Both the position numbers and the translations under genes were made by a program. From Candidatus Uhrbacteria bacterium (GTDB lineage Bacteria > Patescibacteriota > Patescibacteriia > UBA9934 > GWF2-40-263), in NCBI GenBank assembly GCA_026395055.1, contig JAPLZK010000002.1, positions 192,154-256,153 on the forward strand: 64,000 nt of DNA, read 5' to 3'. Within the stretch, counting starts at the first letter, position 1; every line of letters starts with the position of its first letter. The notes below the pieces were generated by a model that saw only the letters and a program-made list of their open reading frames with translations, was not told the origin of the DNA and did not search any database. Positions 7,502 to 48,113 of this stretch are shown here, in pieces.

Positions 7502-7600
7502 AAAATAAATTATCCACAAACAGACCCTTGATTTTTGTTTTAAAATGTGTTAGATTCGAATAAAGAGTGTCGATGACTTCATTCAATAACGAATTTATCT

Positions 7601-7867: not shown

Positions 7868-7874
7868 AAGAAGA

Positions 7875-7905
7875 AAACACACCTGTCGGGTGTGTTTTCT
7901 GTTTG
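7875..7905 (+). terminator. Rho-independent terminator
   Basis: acacacc-tgtc-gggtgtgt followed by tttctgtttg. Confidence 0.65.
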
Positions 7906-8071
7906 ACAACCCTTCTCCCCTTTGTCACAATGGTTCCACGTATGCACCGCATTTCTCTTGCAAATAACAATGATGATAACAGCTAATTAAGCTGGTCTTC
8001 TTTGCGCAAGAAAAAACGCCAATGAAACCAGCCAAAGAGCTGGATTTTTTTACGCCTAAGCTCTCCTTTTT

Positions 8072-9385
8072 ATGCAAAATCGAACTCTCGTCAGAGACTT
8101 AAATGACAAACTCGGTCAGACCGTCATTGTTGCGGGTTGGCTTCACCGTTTGCGCGATATGGCCAAATTCGGATTCGCCATCGTGCGCGATCGAAGCGGG
8201 TTGGTTCAGGTTGTTTTGACTGCGGAGCAATTGGAGCAACTGAAAGGTCTACAGGTTGAAACAGTGCTAAAAGTGACGGGTATTGTTGTGGAAAAACGCA
8301 CGAAAGATCCAAATGCACACGAGGTTGAAATTCAGGCAACAACGCTCGAAATTTTGTCTCCTGTTACAGACGTCACGCCCGTTGAAATCAATAATCATGA
8401 TCTTGATGCGCGACTTGAAACCCTTTTGGACAATCGTGTTGTAACTCTGCGTCATCCAAAACAGCGTGCGATTTTCCGCGTGCAAGCGGCATTGGTGCAC
8501 GGATACCGTGCCTATATGGAAAAGCAAGGGTTCACAGAAATCTTTTTTCCTGTGCTTGCGGGGGCGGCATCAGAAGGTGGATCAGAATTTTTTCGCGTGG
8601 ATTATTACGGACGTGATGCGGCGCTCACACAATCAGCGCAGTTGTATAAACAAATCACCATGGGGGTGTATGAAGGTGTGTACGGGGTTTCTTATTCGTT
8701 CCGCGCAGAAAAATTTTCCACTTCGCGCCATTTGACCGAGTTTAACCAATTGGAGTTTGAAGTCGGATTCATTGATAGTATGGAGGAGGTTATGGAGTAT
8801 GTAGAGGGTTCCACACGCGGAATGTTTGCGGCTATTCAGGAAGAGTGTAAAGAAGAGCTGGCATTGCTTAACGTTGTCCTCCCTCCACTTGGAGAAAAAT
8901 TTCCGCGCATTAAATTGATAGATGCACTGCACGTGTATAAGGCGGAAACGGGCATTGATGAAACACACGAGCCAGATTTGTCTCCCGCAGCGGAACGATG
9001 GTTATCAACGGTATGGGCTCCAAAGGTTCATGGGTCCGGATTCGTTTTTGTTACGCATTATCCAGAAACAAAGCGTCCGTTCTATACAAAGCTTGATCCA
9101 GAAGATCCAACATCAACACTCAGTTTTGACTTGATCGGATTTGGAAGTGAAATTGTTTCCGGAGGAATGCGCGTGAATCGTTATGATGAACAGCTTGCAC
9201 GTATTCAGTCAAAAGGTTTGCGTGTAGAAGATTTTGAGGATTATCTCATGATGCATAAATACGGCATCCCACCAGAAGGTGGATTCGGAATGGGATTGCA
9301 ACGTCTGACACAAAATATCTTGGGATTAGCAAATATCAAGGAGGCAACAATTTTTCCTCGCGATGTTCAACGTCTCAGACCATAA
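8072..9385 (+). CDS. aspS: Aspartyl-tRNA synthetase, archaeal/eukaryotic type (short, ~437 aa)
   Basis: Class IIb architecture without the bacterial GAD insertion domain: FRAEKFSTSRHLTEFNQLEFE, GSEIVSGGMR, GGFGMGLQRL. Length and motifs match type-2 AspRS. Confidence 0.8.
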   Translation: MQNRTLVRDLNDKLGQTVIVAGWLHRLRDMAKFGFAIVRDRSGLVQVVLTAEQLEQLKGLQVETVLKVTGIVVEKRTKDPNAHEVEIQATTLEILSPVTDVTPVEINNHDLDARLETLLDNRVVTLRHPKQRAIFRVQAALVHGYRAYMEKQGFTEIFFPVLAGAASEGGSEFFRVDYYGRDAALTQSAQLYKQITMGVYEGVYGVSYSFRAEKFSTSRHLTEFNQLEFEVGFIDSMEEVMEYVEGSTRGMFAAIQEECKEELALLNVVLPPLGEKFPRIKLIDALHVYKAETGIDETHEPDLSPAAERWLSTVWAPKVHGSGFVFVTHYPETKRPFYTKLDPEDPTSTLSFDLIGFGSEIVSGGMRVNRYDEQLARIQSKGLRVEDFEDYLMMHKYGIPPEGGFGMGLQRLTQNILGLANIKEATIFPRDVQRLRP

Positions 9386-32565: not shown

Positions 32566-32808
32566 GTGGTAGATGTTAAACGTCGCAAAGGTGAAAGTTT
32601 CGAAAGTTTGCTCCGTCGCTACTCTCGCCGTCTCCAACAGTCTGGAAACGCGCTTGAAGCACGTAAACTCCGTTACTACGCGCCGAGCCCAACCAAAAAC
32701 AAGCAAAAAGTTAGTGCGATCCGTCGTCTTGAAATTCGCGATAAGCGTGATTACTTGGCTCGTATCGGACAACTCGTTGACGAACCTCGCACGCAAAAGC
32801 GTCGATAG
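32566..32808 (+). CDS. rpsU: 30S ribosomal protein S21 (GTG start)
   Basis: Basic 80-aa protein VDVKRRKGESFESLLRRYSRRLQQSG...RRLEIRDKRDY resembling S21. Confidence 0.75.
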   Translation: MVDVKRRKGESFESLLRRYSRRLQQSGNALEARKLRYYAPSPTKNKQKVSAIRRLEIRDKRDYLARIGQLVDEPRTQKRR

Positions 32809-32863
32809 TGTAAAATGAGGAGTGGATTTATCCATTCCTCTTTTTCGTTTATAATCATTGTAT

Positions 32864-33631
32864 ATGACACTCCTTGAACAAATCGGCTCCGACGTGAAAG
32901 ATGCTATGCGCGCAAAAGAAGAATCTACGCTCTCAACGCTTCGCATGCTTAAGTCTGCGCTTAAAAATAAAGAGATCGATCTTATTCGTCCACTTACAGA
33001 GGTGGAGGTTTTAGATGTGATTAAATCACAGGCAAAACAATTGAAGGAGGCCATTGATCAATTCGAAGCAGGAGGTCGATCAGACCTGGCGGAATCAAAC
33101 AAGATTGAACTTGAGGTGCTGAAAAAATATATGCCAGCCGAATTGTCGGATGCGGATCTTGAGGCTGTTGTGAAAGACACACTCGCACAATCAGGTGTAA
33201 GCTCGAAAGCGGACATGGGGAAGGCGATGGGCTTTGTCATGAAAGCAGTTGCGGGGCGTGCAGACGGAACACGTGTGAAATCTCTTGTTGAAAAAATGCT
33301 GAGCATGTTTATCTTTGCCGTCCTTGTAAATACCATGGTCGTTTCTTCTGCACATGCAGAAATCGGTACGGTAACGCTTCCCGAATTTGGAACGTATTCG
33401 TACTTGCCTTACCTAGAAATGGGAATTCGTCTTGTGCGTGTCATGTTTTTGTTCGCTGGCTTATTTTCCATTATGGAAATTTTGCGTGGGGGAGTGGAAA
33501 TGACCGTTGGTTCTGTACGTGATGCTGTAAGAGACAAAGCAGAGCATAAAATTATTACAGGATTCATGAATATAGGAGTTGTTGTCGCACTCTTTTGTGT
33601 AACGACTGTTGTGCTTAAACAGTTGGGCTAG
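32864..33631 (+). CDS. yqeY: GatB/YqeY-domain protein read in-frame into a C-terminal pilin-like module (possible fusion or internal start at 33296/33305)
   Basis: Residues 1-147 are a complete YqeY domain. Then comes a signal-peptide-like MFIFAVLVNTMVVSSAHA and a two-helix module GIRLVRVMFLFAGLFSIMEILRGG...HKIITGFMNIGVVVALFCVTTVVL homologous to the N-termini of the next two genes. A TATAAT box sits 10 nt upstream of the ATG. Confidence 0.6.
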   Translation: MTLLEQIGSDVKDAMRAKEESTLSTLRMLKSALKNKEIDLIRPLTEVEVLDVIKSQAKQLKEAIDQFEAGGRSDLAESNKIELEVLKKYMPAELSDADLEAVVKDTLAQSGVSSKADMGKAMGFVMKAVAGRADGTRVKSLVEKMLSMFIFAVLVNTMVVSSAHAEIGTVTLPEFGTYSYLPYLEMGIRLVRVMFLFAGLFSIMEILRGGVEMTVGSVRDAVRDKAEHKIITGFMNIGVVVALFCVTTVVLKQLG

Positions 33632-33655
33632 ACTATCCACATCTTTTCTATTCGA

Positions 33656-33700
33656 TTGATCAAAAATACGATACAATGTTTGTGTCGTATTTTTGATATC
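33656..33700 (+). promoter_or_regulatory. Inverted repeat (TTGATCAAAAATACGA / TCGTATTTTTGATATC) whose loop contains TACAAT, immediately upstream of the surface-protein operon
   Basis: 14-16 bp arms around a 13-nt loop, 3 nt before the ATG at 33703. Operator-like geometry overlapping a -10-like hexamer. Confidence 0.45.
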
Positions 33701-33702
33701 AC

Positions 33703-35613
33703 ATGAAGCGTTTCTTTGACCCAAGAAACAAATCTTTTTCACACGTGACAGCCATACTTGGTATGCTGTTTCTTTGCGTTATTGGACTGTTCGTTGCGCA
33801 ACATGGTGTTCTTGCAGCAACACCATCACCGCTAGACGCTGTTGGAGCAGGGGCGGGTCTTCCACAAACAAGTTTGCCGATCTTGATTGCAAAAATTATC
33901 CGCGCCGTTCTTGGTGTGCTTGGAATCATTACAGTGATTCTTGTGATCTATGCGGGTTGGCTTTACATGAGTGCACAAGGTGATCCCACAAAGGTAGCAA
34001 AATCAAAAAAGATCATCACAAACGCCGTCATTGGTCTTGTCATTATTTTTTCTTCTTATTCCATTGCTTCGTGGATTCTCGGTAAGCTGCTTGATGCGGC
34101 GAATGGTCCGGGCACAATCGTAAGCATTGCCAAAAAATACTCAGAACCACTTGCGGGTTCACTTGGAGCGGGAATTATTGAAAGTCATTACCCAATGCGT
34201 GGCGCAACAGGTGTTCCTCGCAACACAAAAGTATTCGTCACGTTTAAAGAAGCCATTAAGCCACAAACCATCATTGATGGGTATGTATCACCCTGTACGT
34301 ATGTTGTGGCAAATCCACAAACACCCGCACTTTGTTCTACAAAATTAAAGACAGATGCGGTCGCCATGTTTGAAACAGCCAAAGGAGAAACAACCAAACT
34401 CGCAACAGACAAGGTGGTTGTAACGGTGAGTGATGATAAAAAGACCTTCGTCTTCAAACCTGTTTCGTATCTTGGAAATGCCGAAAAGGATACAAATTTT
34501 ACAGTCGCTTTGAAACCAAGTATTCAAAAAGCGGACGGAAGTGCTGCGTTTGCAGGAGTAAACTCGGCTGGATACGGATGGAACTTTACTGTATCAACCA
34601 CGGTTGATTTAACTCCACCAACCATTGTTTCCATCATCCCATCGGTTTCAGAACTTCAACCTCCAGGCGGAACGGTTGTAAATACGCTCAAGAAAAATAT
34701 TTCCGTTGAAATTACGTTCAATGAAGCCATGGATCCAATTGCTACAACGGGAACCTATCAAAAAAACGGAGGAGCAACAAAAAGTTTTCAACGCATTACA
34801 GTGGGTGATGGGAGCCCAGATCCTGTGAACGGATCGTATGATATTAGTAACTCGTATAAAACTGTTGGGTTTACAACAGTAGATGCGTGCGGAAAAGATC
34901 CGTGCGGCGGAACCATTTACTGTTTGCCAGGAGGAAAAACCATTACAGTGACAGCAAAAGCGGCCAGCATTGATGACAGTAATCCGCCACAAGGAATTTT
35001 AACGGGGGTGAATTATGATGGTGTTGTAGATGCTGCAGGAAATTCTCTAGACGGAAATGGAGACAATAAAGCGTGTGGAAGTTCAACAGATAAGGTCGCG
35101 TGTCCTGGTGCGCAAACAAATGACGACTATACATGGAATTTTCATACTTCAAATGACACAGATGATACAGTCCCAAAAATTCAATCGTTGGCACCGGATA
35201 TAAATGAGGGAAGTATTGATGTGTCGAACGATATCACCCTCACATTCAACACATTATTAAAAGCGTCAACCATTAGTTCCAGTAACATTACGCTCACTCC
35301 AGATCCAGCAACGTATATTATGTGGTTCAGTCCATCAAAGACAGACATACCAAATACACTTCCAACGGATATTGCTACTCAATCTGTCATTCACATTTCA
35401 CATCCACCATTTATTTCAAACGCAGAAGGCGGTTCTGGGTATTGGCCACGTGTCACGCAAGAAGTGAAAAGTGCGTATCAAATTTGTATGTTTCCATCTA
35501 TGGGGGACGTTACGAGTTCTGCAAAAGACTGTAATGGAGCAGATCCAGCCAAACCGTATTGTTGTAGCGGATCTCCGTCAGCTTCCGCGTGTGCCGTTCC
35601 ACTTCCAAAGTAA
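33703..35613 (+). CDS. Large surface protein (636 aa) with pilin-like N-terminal membrane module and Big/Ig-like domains
   Basis: N-terminus is signal/TM, then AATPSPLDAVGAG, then two hydrophobic helices separated by GDPTKVAKSKK. Downstream are Big-like signatures (PPTIVSIIPSVSE...ISVEITFNEAMDP) and a Cys-rich C-terminus. Confidence 0.8.
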   Translation: MKRFFDPRNKSFSHVTAILGMLFLCVIGLFVAQHGVLAATPSPLDAVGAGAGLPQTSLPILIAKIIRAVLGVLGIITVILVIYAGWLYMSAQGDPTKVAKSKKIITNAVIGLVIIFSSYSIASWILGKLLDAANGPGTIVSIAKKYSEPLAGSLGAGIIESHYPMRGATGVPRNTKVFVTFKEAIKPQTIIDGYVSPCTYVVANPQTPALCSTKLKTDAVAMFETAKGETTKLATDKVVVTVSDDKKTFVFKPVSYLGNAEKDTNFTVALKPSIQKADGSAAFAGVNSAGYGWNFTVSTTVDLTPPTIVSIIPSVSELQPPGGTVVNTLKKNISVEITFNEAMDPIATTGTYQKNGGATKSFQRITVGDGSPDPVNGSYDISNSYKTVGFTTVDACGKDPCGGTIYCLPGGKTITVTAKAASIDDSNPPQGILTGVNYDGVVDAAGNSLDGNGDNKACGSSTDKVACPGAQTNDDYTWNFHTSNDTDDTVPKIQSLAPDINEGSIDVSNDITLTFNTLLKASTISSSNITLTPDPATYIMWFSPSKTDIPNTLPTDIATQSVIHISHPPFISNAEGGSGYWPRVTQEVKSAYQICMFPSMGDVTSSAKDCNGADPAKPYCCSGSPSASACAVPLPK

Positions 35614-35622
35614 ATTTTTTAC

Positions 35623-38600
35623 ATGAACCTGTATAGATTGTTCAAATCGATTTCCATTCTAGCCGTCCTTGTTTGTACGGGAATCTTTTTTGTCCACCCA
35701 GTCTTTGCAGTAAGTCCCACAGACTCCAATGCATTTTCTTCCTTTGCGGCTAGTGCGGGGTTTGCAGCGGGCCCTTCGGTGATTGTGATCATTGCACGAT
35801 TGATTCGTACATTCATTTCATTTCTGGGAGTGATTGCGGTTATCATCGTCCTTTACGGTGGGTTCATGTACATGACCGCCGGAGGAAATGACGAACGCGT
35901 CAAAAAAGCAAAAAAGATCATTCTGAATGGAATTATTGGTCTTGTTATTGTTCTTTTGTCATTTACGATCGCTCAGTTCATTGTGGGTAAGTTGGTGGCA
36001 GCAACGTCAGAGGCAGATATTTCTGCCTACTGTTTACAAAATCCAACAGATCCAACGTGTAAAAAATCACCTCCGTTTCCACCAGCGGTTCCACCGTTCA
36101 CATTGAATCCACCAACCTCTCTTATTCAATGCGCGGCAGGGATTCGTAATTTGAAATTGGTATTTGTTTTTTCAAAATCTGTAAAAGATGAAAAGGGGAT
36201 TACCGTAAAACAAAATGGCGCAGATGTTCCAGGGACGTTTTCGTTCTCCGGATCTAAAATCATGTTTGTTCCAGACGCAAAATGTGATGCCCCTAATGAC
36301 ACGCTTCATTGTTTTGCAAAAGACTCCACGTTTCATGTAGAGGTTGATTCCACAAAAGTAAAATCCTCAAATGACATCGCACTCACCTGTAAAGTTGTTG
36401 GGGGAGTAAATCCTTGTTCGTTTAATTTTACAACAGGCTCTTCTGTGGACGTGAAACCTCCACAAGAAGTTTCGTTCGTAGATCCAAAAGACGGTGCAAA
36501 AGCCATTTTGGGTTTAAGTAAAGCGCTTCAAGTAAAGACCGTTGATGATTCAGGAGTCGCAAGTGTTGATTTTTTTGCGATTGATGGAAGTGTTCCGATC
36601 AATATATCTTCTACTCCTGTAAATCCAACGGTCGCGAATGGACTCACAACCGCGAACTTCAATGGTGTTTGGGTTCCGGTAGGTCTTGAAACAAACGCAC
36701 CCTATTCCGTTTGGGCAACGGCCACAGACTGTGCAGGGAACACAAAAACTTCTAGCAAAGTTTCTCTCATGTTACGTGCACCAAACTGTGATAACAGTGC
36801 GCAAGATGCCGCGGCTCCGTATGGTGAAACAGGAAGCTGTAAGCCTGGAGAAGCGTGTGATTGTGGTGGATCATCTACAAGTCCATTTTACTGCGGACTT
36901 TGTAAACCTTCTGCATGTACAAACAGTGCGGAATGTTCATCTGGATATTGTATTGCGGGAAAATGTCAGGATGTCGCCGTGATCCAATCGGTTTCTCCAG
37001 ATAACGGTGCAGTAAACAACTTAGTAACCATTACAGGTTCTGGATTCGGAACAGTGCCGGGTACAATTGATTTTCTTGGAACAGAAAAAGAGAATACAAC
37101 AAAGTCGGCCAATGCATATCAGTGTGGAGCAAGCGTTTCGTGGTCACCAAAAGAAATTGTTGTACAGATTCCAGCCGGATCCATCGATGGTCCGTTGAAA
37201 GTAAATATTCCTGCAGTTGGAGCAGATCCCGCACAGTCTGACAGAACAGATGATGCTGTAGGTCCTGCCATGTCTTTGTTTGATGTAAACGCGATTAAGC
37301 GTCCTGGTTTGTGTTCTGTTGCTCCTGTAGCCGCAGAAGTAAATACTCCTATTACCCTTACGGGATTATCGTTTGGATCCACACAAGGTTCTTCTTCTAT
37401 TTATCTTTCGAGTTTTGAAGCAAAAGCAACCAATTGGACTGGAACAGTTCTTGGTGCAACGGTTCCTGGAGTAGAAAGTGGTAAGTATGATGCACAAGTT
37501 TTTACCGGTGATTATTTCTGTTTGAATGCAAGTGGGGTAAAGGTAAACCCAGCTGTCACCTGTTTTTCTAATGATGATTGTACAAAAGTTGATCCTGCAT
37601 ACACGTGTGGAACGTCTTGGTGTTCAGAATCACTAAAGTTTTGTCAGAATAATAGTGCGTGTGGTGTAGGAGAAGGGAAATGTGTGGATGTGCGCGTTGG
37701 ATCAAACACAAAATCTTTCGTTGCCACCAATACACCTTCTGCCTCTAAGCCGGTTATTAAATCCATCGATCCTTCCAGAAAATTGTGTTATTGGTCTGCG
37801 GATCAACTTAAACCTTTGCAAACAAAGCAGGGGCTTTCAGACACAAACTTTAATAGTTTTGTAGATTCATTGAATGGAACAACGATGGGTATTGGATCCT
37901 TGTGTTCTGCAGATACAGATTGTTCAAAAAAGATTTCAGGCGATACGTACAACGGTGTCTGTAAAGAGTATCCAAACACAGGTGGTCCCGGTCAATACAT
38001 TACGATTTACGGGTTAGGGTTTGGAACAGCGAAAGGAACGGTAAAGTTTACAGATGCAAACGAGTATTACGCTCTCGGAGACGTTTCATTTCCAGATGCT
38101 TGTGGAAAAGATTATTGGCATGATGACCACATCATTGTAAAGGTTCCAAAAAGTTACAGCAGTCAAGCGGGGGATCTCACAAATACAAATTACAACGTAA
38201 CTGTATCGACCCAAGGAAATGTTGCTTCTGATCCGGTCGCGTTTCACGTTTATCCGCAGGTTGTTCCGGGACCAAGTATTTGTTCTATTGTTCCAAGTTC
38301 GGGGCCTATTGGAACATCTGTTTCACTCATTGGAGAAAATTTTGGGTTACCTGTAACAAACACGGGGTACAATCTTCAGGCTGTTTTTACAGATAATCAG
38401 CAATCAAAACCTGGAAGTTGGGCAAATACACTTGTTTCAAATATTTTAGTTCCGGCTACGGCAAAGTCTGGTCCGGTTCATCTTGAATTTGGTTCCAACT
38501 CTCTTAATTTTACGGTGGGAAACTGTAAAACAGATTCAAAAATTGTTTGTTCAGCTGGACAAACCTGTTGCGCAAACGGAACGTGCTCGCTGTCGTGTGA

Positions 38601-41600
38601 TGACACGCCAAAAATTTCACACTTTGCTTACAAAGTTTCCACAAGTCCTTTTCCGGTCGCGCCAACGGTGGTGGTGAACTGTTCTGATCCAAAATTTGCA
38701 AAACCTTCTCCATCTCCTTCTCCGCTTTGGAGTAAGCAAGACAATATTTGTGTTACGTCTGCTGTTACGGCTTCCTTTAGTGTTGCCATGGATCCAAATA
38801 CACTCACTGCAACAAACATCAAAATCCAGAAATGTACTTCAGAAGCAAATGGGGTCTGTGCCAATTCGGGATGGCAAGATGTTGTGGGAGCATTTCAGGT
38901 CCCAAGTGCGGTTGCATTTCAATGGGCACCAACACCTCCGGCTGTGCTTGATGCGAATACGTTATATCAGGTCACCATCAAGGGTGCATCCGCTCCAGGT
39001 GGTGGCGTAAAATCAAAGGGAAGTGGATTAACCCTGGGTGTATCCATGGCCCAAGATTTTTCTTGGCAATTCCGTACATCTGCTTCAAATAAAGATTGTG
39101 GCATCGGAAGTGTGGCTGTTTCACCAGCAAATTATCTTGCGACCAATGCGAGTGAAACCATTGGGTATTTATCTCAACTCCTTTCGAATCAAGATAGCTG
39201 TATTGTCTTGTCGTGTAATCCGTACAAGGTTCGTTGGAATTCTGATACATGGAATGCAACATTTGCGCCAAGTCATACACTCACCGTTCCAGATGCTGCG
39301 GCAGATCCAGCACTCGGCTCTTGTTCTGCCTCTGTTTTTCCAGACGCAAACACCATTCCAGGATTCCCAGCACATATTTCTTCTGTCGTTATCAATGATG
39401 GGAAAAACCCGCATGCAACCGGTACAGGAAATTTGAACATTGCTCTCACAAATCCAAAGGTAAGTGATTATTTTCCAAATTGTTCTTCTGCCTGTGGAAA
39501 TGCCATGCCGTGGGTTACGTTTAACGTTGCCATGAATCCTTGGTATTTCAGCAATGCAGGAGCGATTCGTATTTTCAAATGCCAAAATAGTTTATGTGAT
39601 CAAAGTCAGGAAACGTTTCAAAATATTATTTCAGGAATCACGTACGATGCCGCAACTTATAAAGCGAAAATTGGATTAAACACATCACTCACACAAAATA
39701 CGTGGTACCGCATTGTCGTTTCTGGAACAATCAAATCTGGAACGCAGGCACCTCTTTCCAATTCCGGATCCAATTTTGGTACGTCAGAAAATAAATTCTT
39801 CTCCGGAGATTTTTCTTGGAGATTTAAAACAAAAGATTCCGCCATCTCTTGTGTGGTAGACCGTGTTGGGGTTTCTCCAAAAACAGCAACGCTTAACTAT
39901 GTTGGACAACGACAAGAATACAGCGCCACAGCTTTTGGGGCGCCAGATGATTGTTCTGTGACAGGCCAAGCTCTTCAATCAACAGGATGGGGTACATGGG
40001 GAGCAACAGATACTCCAAACAAAATCGGAGCCGCTTCTTATGTTTTGGGGGTGGATCATAAATTGAATGAAATTACAACGTTCATGTTGAATGAAGGTTC
40101 GCTCGCGCTTGCTTCTACGCTTCCAAAAACATGTGCAGCAAATTGTTTGTTTACCGGAAATCCAATCAACGTTGGACAAGCGGTCTGTGGAAACTCGTCT
40201 ATAGAAAACGGTGAATCCTGTGATGATGGCAACACAACAGACGGAGATGGCTGCTCGAGCATCTGTCTTAAAGAAGGAACGGTTGCGCCAACATGTGGAA
40301 ACGGTGCGATGAATACAGGAGAACAGTGTGATGACGGAAATACAATAGACGGCGATGGTTGTTCTTCAAAATGTTTATTTGAAGGAGCAACATCTATCAA
40401 ATCTGTTTGTGGAGATGGTGTTTGGGATCACACGGATAAGAATGGCGGAGAAGCATGTGATGATGGAAATACGAAAAATGGCGACGGTTGTAATTCAAAT
40501 TGTTTGCTTGAAGGTGGGGTCGCTGCCTACTCAAGCGCACGTTGTGGCGATGGTTCCGTTGGTGTTGGAGAAACGTGTGATGACGGAAACACTGTGGACG
40601 GTGATGGTTGTTCCTCTATTTGTCTGAATGAAGGAACCGTAAAGGGAACAGATGCCACAAAAGCTCAGTGTGGAAATGGTGTTACAAACGTTGGAGAAGA
40701 TTCCGGATGTGATCTTGGCGTTGGATCTGTTGCTCCAGGCTGTTCCACAAAATGTTTGAAACTGGGTTCAAGTCCAAGTTATCCTTCGCCATCTATCTGT
40801 GGAAACGGAGGGGCTTTGGAAACAGGGGAACAATGTGAAGCTGCGGCAGGTGCATCTTATGTAGCGGGTCCTTACGGAGTTGCAGAAGTTTCTCCTGGTG
40901 CTTCAGTTGAGGTGGAAAAGGATATCACAAAAGCAACATTCGGTTATGCGATTTCAAATGTTTCTGCAACAGTAGGTGGAAAAACAGGAGTGGGTGAATT
41001 TAAGTTGCTTTGTTCTTGTGAGGCAGACAACCAGTGCGGAACAAAATCTGGAGATCCAACAAAGACGCTTGGTTGCGGTGCTTCAAAGTGCTGTTATGAA
41101 CGTCCGGCTATTACCGCATCCGCACCGGGGGATAATGCAACAGGCGTTTGTCGTAATACCGCGATCTCGTTTACGTTTGATCAAGAAATGGATGCGAATA
41201 GTTTTGGGTCCGTTGATTTGGATGGAGATGGAAAAATCTCTACCGCAGAGACAGATCCAAATTTGCAGCTCGAGTTGATTACCATGAAATCCGCATTGGG
41301 AGTTGATGAAAATGTAACAGCGGCAAATTGTCCGTATTATGCTCAACCGGTCGGATTCTTACATGCAAAGAATTTGCTTGTATCTGCTTGGAATTGGATT
41401 AAGGGCTTGTTTGGTCAACCCGCGATGGCAAACGCCACAACACAATGTTACGTTCCAACAACGTATGAACAAGATCCAGCAACGCACCAAGTGTATCTCA
41501 GATATACAGAGCGTTTGTTGCCACTCGCGAAATATAAATTAACCGTGAAAACAAAAAACGGAAATGCAAAAGGAATCTTGAGTAAAAATCAGGTCAGTAT

Positions 41601-44600
41601 TTGTCTCGGAGACAATGGAACGGCTTGTCAGTCTGTTTCACAAACAAATACGTTTACGACCGGATCGGATATTTGTTTGCTGGATGTTGCGCAGACAACA
41701 GATGAGGGAATCACACCAGCACCACCTTCATATCTTTCAACAAGTCCTGGGTATTATTCAAAAACAAACGAAACGCACAATTTTAGTGTGAAGCCTCTTT
41801 CGTATCGAAAAAATACAGGTTTGTTGGAAGAAATTACATCCATTCCGAATGTGTATTCCTGGACATGGAGTTGGGGGGCTCCTGTGAAAGATACGGGAAC
41901 AAATGTTGATATTTTGGGAACGATTGCAGTAAGCACAACAAGCAACTCGCAATATAAAGCGCTTGGAAAAAATGGTTCTGGCGATGTTATTGCAACAGCA
42001 ACCATTACATCAGATGCGGTAAGCAAGGTTTCTACAACCGGATCCGGAGTTTCCGGTCATGTCTCAGAAGTTGCCTTCTTGTGTGAAAACCCATGGCCAG
42101 ATTTGGCACACGGTGTTCCGTTTGTGGAAACGGGGGCTAACACAAACTTCTCTCTCTTTTATTGTCGCGACATTGGAAAACCCGGAGAAGGAAAAATGCT
42201 TCCTGTACTTGCGCTTCCTCCAACAGACGCAACACCAGATCAAAAGATTATTAACACAAACGTGTTGAAGGAGTTAGTGTTCCATGTTGAAGGAACGAAA
42301 GACTCTATTGGGGTGCGCGTGCTCTCGAATCCAAAATATTTGTCTCCATTGGCATGGTTTCAATCTCAAGGATTTACGGGAACGCCAAAAACAACAACAC
42401 TTGATGGGTACGAAGCTGTTCAGACAGGTACAACCATTTATGCGGCCGCGGCAAATAGAAATGGTTCAAATCTCTACTCAAACATTTACGTTGTTTCATT
42501 TAACTCAGATGCAGGAAAAGATGCACAAGATATTTTTGATCTCGTGCTCAAAAATTTCCACTTGAATGCGAATGACACAGGTGCTACGGGTGTTTCACAT
42601 GTTGGTTTGTGTATGAGTGGAAACGCCTATACGCCAATTGCAGGCCCATTCGTCGCGTGTTCATGGGACGGAGATTGTTTGAATCAATGTAAACCAGAAG
42701 GAAAATGTTCTGTAACAGGAACCGTCTGTGATCCTAAACTAGGAAATACAGAATGTGCCGCAGATCCAAATGCGTTCTGTGATGCGGATAAACAAAAATT
42801 GATTCGTGACACCAAGCGTTTGACGGATATGACAAGCATGGTCGCTACGTTTGAAAAATATGGATCTTCACACGGTCATTGTTCCGTTACAAAAAATCAA
42901 ACATGTTCCACGAATGCACAGTGTTCCGGAACAGAAACGTGTGTTCCAGGTTATCCAACGGTGCAATCCGGTACATTTATTCCATCCATGAGTAACAGTA
43001 TTTGGCCTTCATGGAACAGTACGCTCGGAAATGCGGTGGGTGGAGCACTTCCAACAGATCCGCTTAACCAATACTGGGCACAATGTAAAAACGTAGGAGC
43101 AGGTTATGACTCTGCAACGTGTTGGAACAGTACACAAGGAAAATTTGTGTGTCCGGATGGTTCGCATGTGTACGGATATCAAAACCAGGGCGGAGAAGAT
43201 TACACATTATCTACAGAACTTGAATACGGTGCAGTTGCTTGGGTGAATAAGATTGATCAATCCGCATCAGACCATGCAACCATTCAAGCGTCGTATGGCT
43301 TAAACAAATCGCCAGCTGGATTGTTAGATGGATTTACGATCGCTCCACAATATTGCAACGCAACCACGTTTGGAAGTTCAACCATTTGTGGAGATGGTGT
43401 GAAGGGGGTTGGAGAAGCGTGTGAAAAAGGAGAAGTTAAATCTATTGCGTGCGCGGCAGGCGCTGGGTTTATTAACGTGACATGTAAGAGTGATTGTTCG
43501 GATTTCCAAGATGAAGCTGCGGCAAAAGCTGCGGGAGCAACCTGTAAACCATTCGCTTGTGGAAATGGAGTAAAAGATCCAGGAGAAACGTGTGATGACG
43601 GTGCATTAAACGGTACGTACGGACACTGTGGGGCAAACTGTACCCTTGCAAACGCATTTTCTTGTGGTGACGGTTACCTTGCCGGAAACGAACAGTGTGA
43701 TTGTGGAACGCCAACAAACTTCTCAACGCTTGCCGGAGCAAGCTGGGCAAAATCGAATAATCACTGCGATACCTATAATGGTGGATATTCCGCGACCGGA
43801 AAAAACTGTACGGTTGACTGCAAGCTTCCAGGACCAATGTGTAGCGACGCGATTGTGAACGACTCTTCTGAAGTTTGCGATAAGAGTACAGAAACGTATG
43901 CGGGAGCATTGAATGCGGATGGAACAAAGTGTAACGCATCATCTGGATGTGCAGTTGCCGCGTGTACAAAATCTAAAATTTGTACAGCGGGAACAAATAT
44001 TGGATCGACCTGTACAACTGACCTAAATTGTCCGACAGATGCAGCGGATGTTTGCGCATCAGATACTTGTGTGGCAAAAAAATGTTCCGCAAGTGGGAAG
44101 GCATGCGGAACAAATGCAGACTGTGTGGGTAAATGTTCCGTTAGCGGAAAGCTTTGTGGAACGACAGCAGATTGTGCGGGGAAATGTTCTGCTGAGCTAT
44201 ACGATCTAACCAGAACGCGCACGTGTCAGAATTATGGCACTTCACCCGTCTCTCAAGCGTGCTCATGGATAACGAATGCAAATAGTGGATGGGGAGACTG
44301 TGCAGGTGGTCCACAACAATGTGGAAATGGGAAAAAGGAAGGAGCAGAAGAGTGTGATGATGGAAATAGTTCAGATAATGATTCTTGTACAAACGCTTGT
44401 AAGTTGAATGTTTGCGGTGACAACAAAGTAAACGTCGGAATCGAATCCTGTGATAGTGGTGGAGCAAACGGAACCGTTTGTAACGCAGCATACGGTGCAA
44501 GCTGTAACTTCTGTAATAAATTCTGTCAGTACAAAACACAATCTGGTCCGTATTGTGGAGATGGAGTGATAAATGGAAATGAGTATTGTGATGGAAATGA

Positions 44601-45633
44601 TATTCCACGTCAGTGCTTCAAAGCGGATTCGGCAAAGTGTGCGGGTGGAACAAATGCGGCAGGTAAGGCGAGCAACGGAAAAGTTTGTGATCAATCGAAT
44701 CCATGTGGAGGTGATGCAAAGTGTGGTGATCAATCAAACCCGCAAGTTGCGGGAACCTGTTCAAAACAAGATGAAGGGAAAGTTGGTGGTCAATTAGGAT
44801 TTGAATGTTCCATCAGTCACACCTATTGCCGACCAAAAGGAACGTGTTGGGACGGAACGAATCCGGATGTTGCGAACGTTTGTACATCGAGTGCAGATTG
44901 TCCAAACGGCGGATCATGCGTGAATGATTCTGGATGTTATGGTGGGTACGGTGATTGTGTTCCAGCTCCAAAAGCATTTACTGGTTGTGATGCGGGGTAT
45001 ACGTGCCGTTTGGTTGGATCTTGTAATGGCGGAGACTCAAACGGGGAAAATGGAAAATTATGTACGACAGGAGGGCTTGGTTGGGAGTATTATCCAGATA
45101 ATAATAAAAATTATTGCGATCACACGTACACAAATGGAGTTGATACTGGTTCTGGAACCTGTCAGGTTCCGGTCTGTGGACCAAATTGCGGAAGCACCTG
45201 TCCAACCGCCTTCCAAAAAGTTTCTCTGCAAGTCCAAGGAAATGTAGCTGAGTCACAACCATCAAGTAATATTAATTTATATAGTTTCCAAAACGCTGCC
45301 GGTCAATCGCCAGATAGAGCAAGTATTCTTTTGCCTGCATGTCGCGTTGGGTCTAGTATCACAGCCGATATTGCAACCGGAAGTGCGCTTCTGAATACGG
45401 GGAATAACGCACAAATAATCGCGGCAACAAAAATAGATGCCAATGGAAAATATGTAAATGCTCAAACACAGACAGATATATTTGGTATCGGAAACGGAAT
45501 TAAACTGCCACTCCCAACCAAGTTTATCTGTCATGATGTTCCATTCTCTCTTCCGTTCAATGTAACACTCAATCCTCCGGCAGCATCGTCCGTTTCAATG
45601 AAGAACTTCGAGTTTACCTATTGTCCGCTTTAA
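35623..45633 (+). CDS. Giant surface protein (3336 aa): pilin-like N-module, Big/Ig-like and IPT/TIG domains, Myxococcus-type Cys-rich repeats
   Basis: Uninterrupted 10 kb ORF starting 9 nt after the previous stop. N-module matches the upstream paralog. IPT/TIG-like segments (IQSVSPDNGAVNNLVTITGSGFG; PSICSIVPSSGPIGTSVSLIGENFG) and more than 12 repeats of CG(N/D)Gx4-6GExCDDGNxxDGDGCSxxC. Confidence 0.85.
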   Translation: MNLYRLFKSISILAVLVCTGIFFVHPVFAVSPTDSNAFSSFAASAGFAAGPSVIVIIARLIRTFISFLGVIAVIIVLYGGFMYMTAGGNDERVKKAKKIILNGIIGLVIVLLSFTIAQFIVGKLVAATSEADISAYCLQNPTDPTCKKSPPFPPAVPPFTLNPPTSLIQCAAGIRNLKLVFVFSKSVKDEKGITVKQNGADVPGTFSFSGSKIMFVPDAKCDAPNDTLHCFAKDSTFHVEVDSTKVKSSNDIALTCKVVGGVNPCSFNFTTGSSVDVKPPQEVSFVDPKDGAKAILGLSKALQVKTVDDSGVASVDFFAIDGSVPINISSTPVNPTVANGLTTANFNGVWVPVGLETNAPYSVWATATDCAGNTKTSSKVSLMLRAPNCDNSAQDAAAPYGETGSCKPGEACDCGGSSTSPFYCGLCKPSACTNSAECSSGYCIAGKCQDVAVIQSVSPDNGAVNNLVTITGSGFGTVPGTIDFLGTEKENTTKSANAYQCGASVSWSPKEIVVQIPAGSIDGPLKVNIPAVGADPAQSDRTDDAVGPAMSLFDVNAIKRPGLCSVAPVAAEVNTPITLTGLSFGSTQGSSSIYLSSFEAKATNWTGTVLGATVPGVESGKYDAQVFTGDYFCLNASGVKVNPAVTCFSNDDCTKVDPAYTCGTSWCSESLKFCQNNSACGVGEGKCVDVRVGSNTKSFVATNTPSASKPVIKSIDPSRKLCYWSADQLKPLQTKQGLSDTNFNSFVDSLNGTTMGIGSLCSADTDCSKKISGDTYNGVCKEYPNTGGPGQYITIYGLGFGTAKGTVKFTDANEYYALGDVSFPDACGKDYWHDDHIIVKVPKSYSSQAGDLTNTNYNVTVSTQGNVASDPVAFHVYPQVVPGPSICSIVPSSGPIGTSVSLIGENFGLPVTNTGYNLQAVFTDNQQSKPGSWANTLVSNILVPATAKSGPVHLEFGSNSLNFTVGNCKTDSKIVCSAGQTCCANGTCSLSCDDTPKISHFAYKVSTSPFPVAPTVVVNCSDPKFAKPSPSPSPLWSKQDNICVTSAVTASFSVAMDPNTLTATNIKIQKCTSEANGVCANSGWQDVVGAFQVPSAVAFQWAPTPPAVLDANTLYQVTIKGASAPGGGVKSKGSGLTLGVSMAQDFSWQFRTSASNKDCGIGSVAVSPANYLATNASETIGYLSQLLSNQDSCIVLSCNPYKVRWNSDTWNATFAPSHTLTVPDAAADPALGSCSASVFPDANTIPGFPAHISSVVINDGKNPHATGTGNLNIALTNPKVSDYFPNCSSACGNAMPWVTFNVAMNPWYFSNAGAIRIFKCQNSLCDQSQETFQNIISGITYDAATYKAKIGLNTSLTQNTWYRIVVSGTIKSGTQAPLSNSGSNFGTSENKFFSGDFSWRFKTKDSAISCVVDRVGVSPKTATLNYVGQRQEYSATAFGAPDDCSVTGQALQSTGWGTWGATDTPNKIGAASYVLGVDHKLNEITTFMLNEGSLALASTLPKTCAANCLFTGNPINVGQAVCGNSSIENGESCDDGNTTDGDGCSSICLKEGTVAPTCGNGAMNTGEQCDDGNTIDGDGCSSKCLFEGATSIKSVCGDGVWDHTDKNGGEACDDGNTKNGDGCNSNCLLEGGVAAYSSARCGDGSVGVGETCDDGNTVDGDGCSSICLNEGTVKGTDATKAQCGNGVTNVGEDSGCDLGVGSVAPGCSTKCLKLGSSPSYPSPSICGNGGALETGEQCEAAAGASYVAGPYGVAEVSPGASVEVEKDITKATFGYAISNVSATVGGKTGVGEFKLLCSCEADNQCGTKSGDPTKTLGCGASKCCYERPAITASAPGDNATGVCRNTAISFTFDQEMDANSFGSVDLDGDGKISTAETDPNLQLELITMKSALGVDENVTAANCPYYAQPVGFLHAKNLLVSAWNWIKGLFGQPAMANATTQCYVPTTYEQDPATHQVYLRYTERLLPLAKYKLTVKTKNGNAKGILSKNQVSICLGDNGTACQSVSQTNTFTTGSDICLLDVAQTTDEGITPAPPSYLSTSPGYYSKTNETHNFSVKPLSYRKNTGLLEEITSIPNVYSWTWSWGAPVKDTGTNVDILGTIAVSTTSNSQYKALGKNGSGDVIATATITSDAVSKVSTTGSGVSGHVSEVAFLCENPWPDLAHGVPFVETGANTNFSLFYCRDIGKPGEGKMLPVLALPPTDATPDQKIINTNVLKELVFHVEGTKDSIGVRVLSNPKYLSPLAWFQSQGFTGTPKTTTLDGYEAVQTGTTIYAAAANRNGSNLYSNIYVVSFNSDAGKDAQDIFDLVLKNFHLNANDTGATGVSHVGLCMSGNAYTPIAGPFVACSWDGDCLNQCKPEGKCSVTGTVCDPKLGNTECAADPNAFCDADKQKLIRDTKRLTDMTSMVATFEKYGSSHGHCSVTKNQTCSTNAQCSGTETCVPGYPTVQSGTFIPSMSNSIWPSWNSTLGNAVGGALPTDPLNQYWAQCKNVGAGYDSATCWNSTQGKFVCPDGSHVYGYQNQGGEDYTLSTELEYGAVAWVNKIDQSASDHATIQASYGLNKSPAGLLDGFTIAPQYCNATTFGSSTICGDGVKGVGEACEKGEVKSIACAAGAGFINVTCKSDCSDFQDEAAAKAAGATCKPFACGNGVKDPGETCDDGALNGTYGHCGANCTLANAFSCGDGYLAGNEQCDCGTPTNFSTLAGASWAKSNNHCDTYNGGYSATGKNCTVDCKLPGPMCSDAIVNDSSEVCDKSTETYAGALNADGTKCNASSGCAVAACTKSKICTAGTNIGSTCTTDLNCPTDAADVCASDTCVAKKCSASGKACGTNADCVGKCSVSGKLCGTTADCAGKCSAELYDLTRTRTCQNYGTSPVSQACSWITNANSGWGDCAGGPQQCGNGKKEGAEECDDGNSSDNDSCTNACKLNVCGDNKVNVGIESCDSGGANGTVCNAAYGASCNFCNKFCQYKTQSGPYCGDGVINGNEYCDGNDIPRQCFKADSAKCAGGTNAAGKASNGKVCDQSNPCGGDAKCGDQSNPQVAGTCSKQDEGKVGGQLGFECSISHTYCRPKGTCWDGTNPDVANVCTSSADCPNGGSCVNDSGCYGGYGDCVPAPKAFTGCDAGYTCRLVGSCNGGDSNGENGKLCTTGGLGWEYYPDNNKNYCDHTYTNGVDTGSGTCQVPVCGPNCGSTCPTAFQKVSLQVQGNVAESQPSSNINLYSFQNAAGQSPDRASILLPACRVGSSITADIATGSALLNTGNNAQIIAATKIDANGKYVNAQTQTDIFGIGNGIKLPLPTKFICHDVPFSLPFNVTLNPPAASSVSMKNFEFTYCPL
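40180..40860 (+). repeat. Tandem array of ~6 degenerate ~110-120-bp coding repeats (Cys-rich CGNG...CDDGN...DGCS modules)
   Basis: Repeated tgtgga(a/g)a(c/t)gg...tgtgatga(t/c)gg(a/c)aa...ga(c/t)gg(t/c)tg(t/c)tc units read in the sequence. Confidence 0.75.
43380..44620 (+). repeat. Second, more dispersed array of the same Cys-rich module (at least 6 copies)
   Basis: CGDGVKGVGEACEKGE, CGNGVKDPGETCDDG, CGDGYLAGNEQCDCG, CGNGKKEGAEECDDGNSSDNDSC, CGDNKVNVGIESCDSG, CGDGVINGNEYCDGND. Confidence 0.7.
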
Positions 45634-45642
45634 ACGAATCGT

Positions 45643-46428
45643 ATGGATTTCGGTGATCATCCCGCACAGCCAAGACGCATCTCAAGAAAACTCGTCCTCA
45701 TTATTCTTGGGGGAATTGTTTTGGCTGGTGGGATCTTCTGGGGAGTTTTTTCCCTGATCCATCAGAATGCTCCGTTGACGACTTCAAGTTCTTCTTTATC
45801 AAACGTCTTTGGGAACTCTGCGCAAACTTCATCTGATCCGTGTGTGCAAACTTCGGACGCAAGTGTCTGTAAGATTACAAAAGCAAAAGATCTTGCAATC
45901 TCTTCCAAAAAACCTGATGCTTGTGACGTTCTCAAAGATGCAGATAAAAATGATTGTTACTGGAGTGTTGCGCGCGTAGCAAATGACGCCTCGATATGTG
46001 GAAAAATAGCTGATAAAGATATTTCCGCGCGTTGCTCGACGGAATTAAGTGCATCCGCGGCTTTTTCCGCGTCAGATGGAACGTTGTGTGATAAAATAGG
46101 GGACGTAAATGTGAAATCAAACTGTCAGAAGGTAATCACTTCAACAAAGGATCTCGTTTGCGCAAGCACAGATACAGATTGTCTGTTTACACGAGTGCTC
46201 GCAGCGGCAAATCAGGCACAAGATTCAGATGTCTGTAATGTTCTTGACCCAAAGCGTGAAGCGGATTGTAGAGCGCAGGTTCTTGTGAACGACCCAGATC
46301 ATGATGGTCTTGATTCCACCCAAGAAATCGTCTTGTATCACACAGATCCGCATAATGCAGATACGGATGGTGATGGGTACTCCGATGGTTCGGAAGTGAA
46401 TTCGGGACACGATCCTTTGAAAAAGTAA
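45643..46428 (+). CDS. Membrane-anchored Cys-rich protein with C-terminal TSP3/dockerin-like Ca-binding repeat pair
   Basis: N-terminal TM (LVLIILGGIVLAGGIFWGVF), 16 Cys in the ectodomain, C-terminus DPDHDGLDSTQEIVLYHTDPHNADTDGDGYSDGSEVNSGHDP. Confidence 0.7.
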   Translation: MDFGDHPAQPRRISRKLVLIILGGIVLAGGIFWGVFSLIHQNAPLTTSSSSLSNVFGNSAQTSSDPCVQTSDASVCKITKAKDLAISSKKPDACDVLKDADKNDCYWSVARVANDASICGKIADKDISARCSTELSASAAFSASDGTLCDKIGDVNVKSNCQKVITSTKDLVCASTDTDCLFTRVLAAANQAQDSDVCNVLDPKREADCRAQVLVNDPDHDGLDSTQEIVLYHTDPHNADTDGDGYSDGSEVNSGHDPLKK

Positions 46429-46476
46429 TTATTCTACACGCCTTGCCTTTCGGCAGGCAGGTAATCGCCATTCAAT

Positions 46477-47112
46477 ATGTTTGATGAAATTTCAAAAGAA
46501 CCAGAGGATGTGTTCGCACAAACGGACGCTGCAGCGCCGCAAATGACGCCACCAACCATGAACGCACCTCAACCTACCGTTGCGCCAGCGCCTGCAATGG
46601 CCGCCGCGTCTGCTCCGGTTATCGTGTCAGCATCTGAAAAAAGACCGTTTCCATGGAAACTTGTCGTTCTTTTTGTGGCGATTGTTGTTGTTGTTGGACT
46701 CGCGTTTTTCCTTAGCATGAAAATTCTCAACTCTCGTACGCCTGTTACGCCATCCGCACCTGTTGAAACTGCACAGCCTGCGACACAGGTTCCAACTCCA
46801 GAAGTTCCCGCTGTTGCACCCACAACAACACCTGTTGATCAAACTGCGCCAGCCCCAACTCCTGTTGTCGATCAAACACTCGATTCAGATAAAGATGGTC
46901 TGACGGATGTTCGCGAAGCACAACTCGGAACCAATCCAAATAATCCAGATACAGATGGAGACGGCTTGTTTGATAAGGAAGAGGTGGATGTTTACCACAC
47001 AAATCCATTAAATCCAGATACAGACGGAGATGGATTCAAAGATGGTGATGAAGTTAAGAAAGGATATAATCCAAATGGCCCAGGAAAACTTCTTCAAATT
47101 CCTCAAAAATAA
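46477..47112 (+). CDS. Single-pass membrane protein with Pro/Thr-rich linker and two DxDxDG Ca-binding repeat pairs
   Basis: TM LVVLFVAIVVVVGLAFFL, linker PVTPSAPVETAQPATQVPTPEVPAVAPTTTP, then DSDKDGLTDVREAQLGTNPNNPDTDGDGLFDKEEVDVYHTNPLNPDTDGDGFKDGDEV. Confidence 0.7.
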   Translation: MFDEISKEPEDVFAQTDAAAPQMTPPTMNAPQPTVAPAPAMAAASAPVIVSASEKRPFPWKLVVLFVAIVVVVGLAFFLSMKILNSRTPVTPSAPVETAQPATQVPTPEVPAVAPTTTPVDQTAPAPTPVVDQTLDSDKDGLTDVREAQLGTNPNNPDTDGDGLFDKEEVDVYHTNPLNPDTDGDGFKDGDEVKKGYNPNGPGKLLQIPQK

Positions 47113-47114
47113 GT

Positions 47115-48113
47115 ATGGCGGACCAGATGCTCCAACAACCCGTGACGCAAACGTCAACGCAAAACACACCTGATCAAGTGCGTGTGTTTGCGATGCCAGC
47201 ACGTTATCGTCACGGTGCGGTTGTGAATATGGTTGAACCCGTAAAAGCATCTGCCCCAACAGCCATTGTTCAGCCACCCGTTCCGCCAAAAGTTCTCGCG
47301 CCCATTCCGTCTGCACTTCCACAAAAACAACAGCCTTCACAGACAAAAAAAGGGTTATTGGTTGCTGGAGTCATTGTTCTTATTGCTCTTGGAATTGGCG
47401 GTTATCTTTTGTGGCGTAGTGTACAAAAAAATAAAGAAGCGATTCCTGTGGAACAACCTTCGCAAACGCAAACAACTTCTGAGACTCCGGCAATAACCCC
47501 AGCCACACCCGTTACAACACCTGTGACAACAGGAACGGTTCCATCAACAAATCCATTCCCGTCCGCGGTAACGCCTGGAGTAGATACGGATTCAGACGGT
47601 CTGACGGATATTGAAGAAACAATTGTCTACGGAACCAATCCAAATTTACCCGACACAGATGGTGACGGGTTCCTAGACGGAAATGAAGTTTTTCACGGAT
47701 ATAATCCAAACGGAACAGCTCCTGGGACACTTGAACTTGCCGGACTCGCACAAATGCTGAAGATCGACGGAATTCAGATGTTGTACCCAATGAAATGGAC
47801 CGTTCTCCCCGCATCTTCAGGAACAGGATCTGTTGTTTCAACAACAACAGGTGAAAGTGTTACGGTGAGTATTCTTGCAAAAGATGCATCGCTTTCTCTT
47901 TCCGATTGGTATCAACAATCCGGAAAAGCAGGAGCTCCCTCTAGCTCGAAGAGCAGAAAAGGGTACCCAATGCTCGTGGATAAAAACCAGTTGGGTGTGT
48001 ATTTAGATCTTGGAACACAGGTGGTGAGTCTGATTTATGACACGTCCACAAAAGCAACCATAGATTATCTTCAGACATTTCAAATGATGGTGAATAGTGT
48101 AGAAAAAATATGA
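47115..48113 (+). CDS. Single-pass membrane protein with Pro/Thr-rich linker, DxDxDG repeat pair and C-terminal beta-rich domain
   Basis: TM LLVAGVIVLIALGIGGYLLW, then DTDSDGLTDIEETIVYGTNPNLPDTDGDGFLDGNEVFHGYNPNG. Paralogous to the two preceding genes. Confidence 0.7.
   Translation: MADQMLQQPVTQTSTQNTPDQVRVFAMPARYRHGAVVNMVEPVKASAPTAIVQPPVPPKVLAPIPSALPQKQQPSQTKKGLLVAGVIVLIALGIGGYLLWRSVQKNKEAIPVEQPSQTQTTSETPAITPATPVTTPVTTGTVPSTNPFPSAVTPGVDTDSDGLTDIEETIVYGTNPNLPDTDGDGFLDGNEVFHGYNPNGTAPGTLELAGLAQMLKIDGIQMLYPMKWTVLPASSGTGSVVSTTTGESVTVSILAKDASLSLSDWYQQSGKAGAPSSSKSRKGYPMLVDKNQLGVYLDLGTQVVSLIYDTSTKATIDYLQTFQMMVNSVEKI

Follow-up and report, generated by a model that had tools for sequence, protein, structure and literature searches.

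VirB2-like pilins of the type IV secretion system (T4SS) are present in Patescibacteria (candidate phyla radiation, CPR) as arrays of 2-11 genes whose products share a mean identity of ~25% (PMC12102498, Quinonero-Coronel et al. 2025). These arrays are essential in Ca. Southlakia epibionticum (PMC12102498, PMC10633639, PMC12857230), and a pilin is encoded beside virB4 and other T4SS genes in 1135 of 1948 assemblies (PMC12102498). The same survey made use of the Pfam family PF18895 (T4SS_pilin) and states that no adhesins were detected. Here we describe a 64-kb chromosomal segment of a Candidatus Uhrbacteria (Patescibacteria, CPR) genome, referred to below as the window, in which three consecutive genes carry a module of this pilin family. 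These genes are yqeY, a gene for a 636-amino-acid (aa) protein and a gene for a 3336-aa protein, and all features of the cluster given below lie on the plus strand. We consider it likely that the three proteins share a T4SS_pilin export unit, that the fused YqeY-pilin protein is cleaved to yield a ~90-aa pilin and a membrane-tethered YqeY, and that the copies in the two large proteins serve as the feet of surface adhesins.

The cluster resembles the Patescibacteria arrays in that its modules belong to the same Pfam family, combine a signal peptide with a two-helix hairpin, and occur as several divergent copies in consecutive genes. Those arrays consist of small pilins usually encoded beside virB4. 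Here, in contrast, there is no T4SS gene within 64 kb, two copies of the module form the N-terminal heads of proteins with 636 and 3336 aa, and the third is fused to yqeY. Neither YqeY nor fusions of the YqeY type are mentioned in the survey (PMC12102498).

There is also a clear likeness to the classical VirB2, TrbC and TraA propilins (PF04956), in which a leader precedes two hydrophobic helices that form a hairpin around a short polar loop. Classical T4SS propilins carry long leaders, known examples of which measure ~36-51 aa, and these are removed by signal peptidase I, with processed subunits expected to accumulate in the membrane as an intermediate. Unlike these, the leader proposed here would be 165 aa long and would include a folded housekeeping domain. 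The initial annotation of this DNA had read the module as a T4SS pilin of the VirB2/TrbC type. Membership of a pilin family has held up, although the proper family is PF18895 and the window proteins remain below the cut-off of PF04956 (27.9 bits). Specifically, the 636-aa protein reaches 17.8 bits (E 0.004), and a Pfam scan gives no PF04956 match for the 3336-aa protein or for the YqeY tail. In contrast, one relative retrieved with the tail profile, P0190, passes this cut-off with 43 bits and passes that of PF18895 as well. A sequence search of the PDB with the pilin profile recovered no relative with a solved structure, only spurious matches to designed repeat proteins.

Another described relative is the pilin-like conjugal transfer protein Mbov_0395/MMCAP2_0565 (NF045849), which is carried by integrative and conjugative elements of Mycoplasma. 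The two large window proteins match 67-70 residues of this 80-position model with scores of 33.8 and 34.9 bits, which are below the curated cut-off of 40. The same hairpin is found in this monoderm, wall-less lineage. However, the Mycoplasma proteins are small and reside inside mobile elements, whereas the cluster described here is chromosomal and syntenic across its clade.

The other fusion partner is likewise familiar. As in known stand-alone YqeY proteins of ~147 aa (1NG6, 8XJE), the YqeY domain is complete and structurally typical, and rpsU lies upstream. A YqeY fusion with glutaminyl-tRNA synthetase is known (NF011291), in which YqeY occupies the C-terminal end of the model and is joined to a cytoplasmic aminoacyl-tRNA synthetase. 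No membrane or secreted module on the C terminus of YqeY was found in the literature searched, and a full-text search that combined YqeY with pilin returned nothing relevant. Therefore, the module and its tandem arrangement are known. What look like undescribed variants are its fusion to YqeY and its role, outside of a T4SS locus, as the head of giant surface proteins that are conserved.

The two large proteins carry the most easily recognized copies of the module. The 636-aa predicted surface protein (33703..35613) begins with a signal peptide (aa 1-38), followed by the T4SS_pilin module (aa 57-125; 33871..34077; PF18895, 33.8 bits) and by immunoglobulin-like (Ig-like) Big_5 domains (53.7 bits). 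The 3336-aa giant protein (35623..45633) has a signal peptide (aa 1-29), the module (aa 58-120; 35794..35982), and then TIG, Big_5 and Cys-rich DUF4215 repeats. Both proteins pass the PF18895 gathering cut-off of 26.6 bits, the latter with 40.1 bits as an N-terminal fragment and 32.3 bits at full length, and their N-termini are 47% identical (E 5e-24). Orthologues of the smaller protein, with lengths of 600-624 aa, are encoded after yqeY in all related loci, and orthologues of the giant protein (3306-3521 aa) occupy the equivalent position in loci L001, L003 and L005.

The third copy is found in a 255-aa open reading frame (ORF; 32864..33631) that is 100% identical to an NCBI Uhrbacteria protein. 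A complete YqeY domain (aa 5-146; 32876..33301), predicted to be cytoplasmic, covers model positions 2-143 of 143 of PF09424 with 153 bits, and it is followed by a 109-aa tail without an intervening stop codon, as the initial annotation had claimed. All sequences quoted in that annotation, including the ATG codons at 33296 (M145) and 33305 (M148), are present where it placed them. The YqeY half of an AlphaFold2 (AF2) model matches Bacillus subtilis YqeY (1NG6) in a Foldseek search (E 1.4e-8, 41% identity, TM-score 0.78 on the target), and the confirmation obtained by searching with the full model is limited to this half. Three predicted hydrophobic helices follow the domain, and thus the protein is not the stand-alone, soluble form of ~147 aa.

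The first of these helices is a signal-peptide-like segment (aa 146-165; 33299..33358) that ends with an A-H-A signal-peptidase I site. If cleavage occurs after A165 as predicted, the mature small pilin would start at E166 (EIGTVTLPEFGTYSYLPYLEMGIR). Next is a variable linker (aa 166-180; 33359..33403), predicted to be extracellular, for which the predicted local distance difference test (pLDDT) values are low at residues 160-171 and there is no secondary structure up to residue 180. Median identity across orthologues, measured over aa 166-186, is 13%. The remainder forms a predicted two-helix hydrophobic hairpin (aa 181-254; 33404..33625), with helices at 181-215 and 220-254 (pLDDT 80-93; mean for the whole model 80), in which R192 and G233 are invariant. 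Between close relatives, the hairpin is 72-87% identical and the YqeY domain 72-90% identical. Because the hairpin is nearly as conserved as YqeY, the tail is under selection in its present frame.

The cleavage motif is also conserved. Of 95 fused orthologues, 93 have Ala and 2 have Ser at position -1, and all have A, V, T, I or S at position -3. Bulky residues are found at -2, and Pro, Ser or Thr is found at -4.

Homology between the YqeY tail and the pilin modules is firmly established by profile comparisons. One profile was built from 57 stand-alone PF18895 pilins plus the two modules of the large window proteins, and the other from the tails of the 95 full-length orthologues. These align by hhalign with 98.8% probability (E 7.7e-17) over 96 columns that span the A-x-A site and the motif GGFxYMTxxGxD..A..KI..G, and a second run with independently made alignments gave 98.6% (E 8.4e-16). 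The reversed template (E 0.027) and 20 column-shuffled templates (E >= 0.13) fail to match, and thus hydrophobic composition does not explain the result. The pilin hidden Markov model (HMM) matches 43 of the 95 orthologous tails at E < 1e-4, and PF18895 itself is matched directly by 7 of 84 full-length orthologues (whole-protein E <= 0.01; best 2e-5). Conversely, an HMM made from tails only has exactly three matches among the six-frame ORFs of the window, which are its own gene and the N-termini encoded by the two neighbouring genes, with 52.9 bits (E 1.6e-15) for the 3336-aa protein and 28.6 bits (E 5.8e-8) for the 636-aa protein.

A search of 1.84 billion representative proteins with the tail profile yielded 2503 matches at E <= 1e-3. 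These include YqeY fusions, stand-alone pilins of 76-150 aa, proteins of 2453-3550 aa with an N-terminal module, and tandem multi-module proteins, and PF18895 was confirmed by Pfam in the matches checked. The layout common to the three window proteins is a signal peptide, a variable linker and two hydrophobic helices with a short polar loop. Taken together, these data support the assignment of the YqeY tail as a diverged member of the PF18895 family of VirB2-like pilins. The initial annotation was therefore right that one two-helix module is shared by three consecutive genes, although the G-K-L ending that it attributed to all three is present in only two of them, since the YqeY tail ends with K-Q-L-G.

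Some of the retrieved proteins might be called poly-pilins. Representatives are P0178 (552 aa), P0198 (555 aa), P0217 (501 aa), P0190 (386 aa) and P0188 (352 aa). Each chain carries 3-6 tandem T4SS_pilin modules and 6-12 predicted membrane helices, with a single N-terminal signal peptide, repeated linker-hairpin units and no internal signal peptides. The pilin-array survey (PMC12102498) describes tandem genes, whereas these are tandem modules within one chain.

There are ~95 sequence clusters (NCBI, JGI, ENA and Logan) with the fused architecture, which range from 242 to 270 aa and extend down to 37% identity, and close relatives at 78-87% identity are all 254-256 aa long. The gene order lepB-hisS-rpsU-yqeY::tail, followed by a 600-623-aa gene combining T4SS_pilin and Big_5 and a ~3300-3500-aa pilin-headed gene, is found in loci L001-L004 and L007-L015. 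These findings support a real fusion of a small pilin to yqeY throughout the clade, which was one of the options offered by the initial annotation. The same annotation held that an extension of orthologous yqeY genes lacking pilin homology would speak against its proposal, and the extension of these orthologues does have this homology.

A scan of species representatives in GTDB revealed three states of the locus. The first is the fused yqeY::tail gene seen in the window. In the second, a stop codon is present at the junction and the small pilin ORF continues in the same frame. There are two such lineages. The junction in L005/L006 reads ...LLEKILS-stop-DVKETLL..., and that in L018 reads ...AVEHALE-stop-FFMSQQIFKKTFISLLVFGLSFFPTLVLA followed by RSEAP, wherein the pilin starts with an ATG of its own and carries a classic signal peptide. 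The closest relative of the split L018 is the fused L017. In the third state, there is no small pilin after a yqeY gene of ~147 aa, and the two large pilin genes follow, directly in most loci and ~2.8 kb further downstream in L021. In this sister CPR clade and in non-CPR phyla, YqeY proteins measure 135-163 aa. For non-CPR yqeY genes of ~147 aa (Nitrospirota, Chlorobiota, Acidobacteriota and others), no pilin was found nearby.

A neighbour-joining tree of the YqeY domain, calculated without support values, places fused and split forms in one clade that is sister to the third state, with the split forms nested within the fused. The simplest history is one fusion followed by secondary fission, with repeated fusion as the alternative, and for this purpose the tree is only a rough guide. 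Some genomes of the sister clade encode a separate pilin of ~120-135 aa between the ~620-aa and giant genes (L024, 8388-8789; L037, 7083-7439; L041, 8496-8843). This suggests that the cluster tends to keep one small subunit whose position varies. In addition, public third-party annotation titles read 'uncultured Gammaproteobacteria bacterium' for the cluster contigs L008, L017, L022, L025-L027 and others, and 'Lentisphaerae bacterium' for L019. Such non-CPR titles on contigs that carry a CPR-specific cluster are probably taxonomic mislabels or the result of mis-binning.

We propose that all three genes encode one export-and-insertion unit, which would consist of a Sec-type signal peptide with an A-x-A site, a variable linker and a two-helix hairpin. 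The small pilin would formerly have been an ordinary gene located directly downstream of rpsU-yqeY. With no stop codon between the two in this Uhrbacteria-related clade, the 147-aa YqeY domain would act as an oversized N-terminal region of the pilin signal sequence. In this scheme, YqeY would fold in the cytoplasm, and the hydrophobic segment at aa 146-160 would then insert into the membrane. LepB would cut after A-H-A165, releasing the mature ~90-aa two-helix pilin into the membrane and leaving YqeY tethered through one membrane span.

For the large proteins, we infer that the leader is removed, that the first helix crosses from outside to inside, that the polar loop is cytoplasmic and that the second helix returns to the outside. 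This return would place 500-3200 residues of Ig-like, TIG and Cys-rich repeats on the cell surface, and the TIG, Big_5 and Cys-rich DUF4215 content of these proteins fits such a placement. An adhesin would then stand on the module as a foot embedded in the membrane, and the module might also be its unit of assembly. The small subunit and the two adhesin-bearing subunits might assemble into a filament via a T4SS encoded elsewhere, or might form only a membrane complex.

Several observations weigh against this proposal. Neither VirB4, VirB6, VirD4 nor any other T4SS component was found among the ORFs of the 64-kb window. None was found within 10 kb upstream in related loci either, where the downstream flank that was fetched is filled by the two pilin genes. 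Three assemblies that bear the fusion could be mapped to Table S1 of the survey (PMC12102498), and all are listed there as VirB4-negative, which is weak evidence because the Uhrbacteria metagenome-assembled genomes in that table are split between 18 with VirB4 and 18 without. The putative signal-peptidase I cleavage after A165 is read from the motif only, and the poly-pilins, among them tandem chains of 4-6 modules that lack internal signal peptides, show that processing into single subunits is not a prerequisite for the module to function. The loop of the window tail is weakly basic, and thus the positive-inside rule alone does not fix the topology. Furthermore, the window tail is the most diverged member of its group. 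The pilin HMM gives it 12 bits, and neither Pfam, even at E <= 1, nor NCBIfam yields a match. A Foldseek search of the PDB with an AF2 model of the tail only gave generic helical hairpins, none of them below E 0.001, and its 50 best matches include no T4SS pilin, although this search is uninformative because a bare helical hairpin is too simple to discriminate.

An alternative explanation is that the resemblance of the tail to the pilins is a matter of chance among unrelated hydrophobic hairpins. In favour of this, the pairwise match of the tail to the 636-aa module is not significant, and the fold search returns many unrelated hairpins. The tail does match the module of the 3336-aa protein in a pairwise comparison (E 2e-5). 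We nevertheless reject chance similarity as very improbable, given a profile-profile match of E ~1e-16 with controls that fail, a tail HMM that singles out the two neighbouring modules in addition to its own gene, and the retrieval of PF18895 proteins from the entire sequence collection. We give even less credence to the idea, raised by the initial annotation, that a stop codon was lost by an assembly or sequencing error, for which nothing speaks beyond the unusual architecture. This explanation is rejected because the fusion is shared by ~95 clusters, including close relatives of uniform length, and because 2768 bp of a Logan assembly are identical to the window sequence.

Two other explanations accept both the homology and the fusion. 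One possibility is that the ORF gives rise to two products, wherein the pilin is translated from an internal start (ATG 33296, ATG 33305 or GTG 33275 at V138) and the read-through YqeY-pilin protein is minor or incidental. The two ATG codons are present at the junction in the window genome, downstream of an A-rich stretch that resembles other gene starts in the window, and the GTG codon, which would give an ideal signal peptide (MKSLVEK...), is found in 10 of 14 fused loci. The ribosome-binding site that the initial annotation proposed to look for at the two ATG codons is uninformative, because no Shine-Dalgarno motif was seen at any window gene start examined, and thus its absence says nothing. 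Yet Met is rare at the junction: of 95 orthologues, 7 have it at position 145 and 3 at position 148. In L001 and L007, no start codon is placed such that a functional signal peptide would remain, and V138 is conserved in YqeY whether or not the gene is fused, such that the GTG needs no special explanation. Were the internal product the only one that mattered, ending yqeY with a stop codon would carry no penalty, but the frame is kept open in ~95 clusters. Internal initiation is thus feasible in this genome but is not a conserved property, and we consider this explanation quite unlikely. Alternatively, the tail could be an uncleaved three-helix membrane anchor that tethers YqeY and has lost its role as a pilin. 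This possibility is in line with the conserved fusion, the strong purifying selection on YqeY, the divergence of the window tail from typical pilins and the AF2 model, in which one continuous helix (aa 135-159) runs from the last YqeY helix into the hydrophobic segment. However, a plain anchor needs no A-x-A site, and this site is kept in all 95 orthologues with typical residues at -3 and -1. The hairpin also retains the family motifs, and the split lineages carry the equivalent segment as a separate secreted protein. For these reasons, we regard a simple anchor as improbable, and we favour the cleaved YqeY-pilin fusion described above.

The spacer in front of the 636-aa gene carries two additional elements. 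The motif TATCCACA (33634..33641), which is the core of the DnaA box TTATCCACA, is kept as an exact 8-mer at the equivalent position in related loci. Besides the window, 11 further distinct and highly diverged loci, or 12 if the near-identical L006 is included, carry it on the coding strand between the small pilin and the ~620-aa gene. These sites are located at L005 10811, L007 809, L009 6740, L010 7772, L011 6811, L012 6653, L013 6820, L014 6788, L015 6739, L017 4691 and L018 3714, and one-mismatch versions are present in L003 and L008. The motif usually resides 29-31 nucleotides upstream of a TAnAAT box resembling a -10 element, often beside an intrinsic terminator. This arrangement suggests a candidate conserved regulator site at about -45 of an adhesin-gene promoter. 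The second element is an AT-rich hairpin (33658..33697) with a stem of 17-18 base pairs (free energy -22.8 kcal/mol, z -3.2). It ends 5 nucleotides before the ATG of the 636-aa gene and overlaps a TACAAT -10-like box (33672-33677), and a similar hairpin is found in L007. The hairpin could regulate how the adhesin genes are transcribed or translated.

Upstream, yqeY has a conserved partner in rpsU (32566..32808), which encodes ribosomal protein bS21 and is called as an 80-aa gene (PF01165) in the identical Logan contig L087. The rpsU-yqeY order is kept in L002, L003 and L005, and this pairing was already known and described for Francisella (PMC13374519). A predicted terminator-like hairpin with a T-run follows rpsU (32817..32840), and just after it there is a TATAAT sequence (32851-32856) that ends 7 nucleotides upstream of the yqeY ATG. 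No Shine-Dalgarno-like motif is present at ~38 gene starts examined in the window. Together with the position of the TATAAT box, this suggests leaderless or otherwise Shine-Dalgarno-independent initiation in this organism, which may include a leaderless yqeY mRNA.

Downstream of the giant gene are genes for three single-pass membrane proteins with bacterial TSP3 (Ca-binding) repeats (45643..48113), as indicated by PF18884 matches and visible transmembrane segments. Based on their adjacency, these may be accessory surface proteins of the cluster. All other neighbours in the window with Pfam matches are housekeeping genes, namely secY, adk, map, two class II aminoacyl-tRNA synthetase genes, scpAB, parAB, relA, topA, dprA, pth, der, lytR, lepB, hisS, rpsU, ybeY, dgkA, ftsA, ftsZ, nrdR, htrA and pyk. 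About 12 further window ORFs have no Pfam match, and an Rfam scan of the window returned tRNAs only. The two class II synthetase genes are paralogues (tRNA-synt_2 plus an OB anticodon domain) arranged in tandem at 6167-7501 and 8072-9385. In the unannotated 570-nucleotide gap between them (7502-8071), there is another copy of TATCCACA at 7511-7518, 10 nucleotides past the stop codon.

The fused proteins account for ~100 database entries that are now labelled only 'GatB/YqeY domain-containing protein'. In these proteins, a cytoplasmic housekeeping domain is joined to a secreted membrane subunit with the processing site retained, and thus they offer a test case for internal signal-peptide processing. 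On a larger scale, the host attachment of the ultrasmall, host-dependent CPR bacteria is largely unexplained, and the T4SS survey reported pilin arrays but no adhesins. We tentatively suggest, while considering it unlikely in its full form, that Uhrbacteria-type CPR build a host-attachment apparatus on VirB2-like subunits. The YqeY-delivered pilin and the ~620-aa and ~3300-aa adhesins would co-assemble into a fibre on the surface or a complex in the membrane, with no T4SS ATPase linked to the cluster and perhaps none at all, and YqeY would serve as a 165-aa cleavable leader that ends up tethered to the membrane. Giant Ig-like and Cys-rich proteins that are headed by a pilin module and encoded in a clade-conserved cluster provide a concrete, testable candidate for the missing adhesins.

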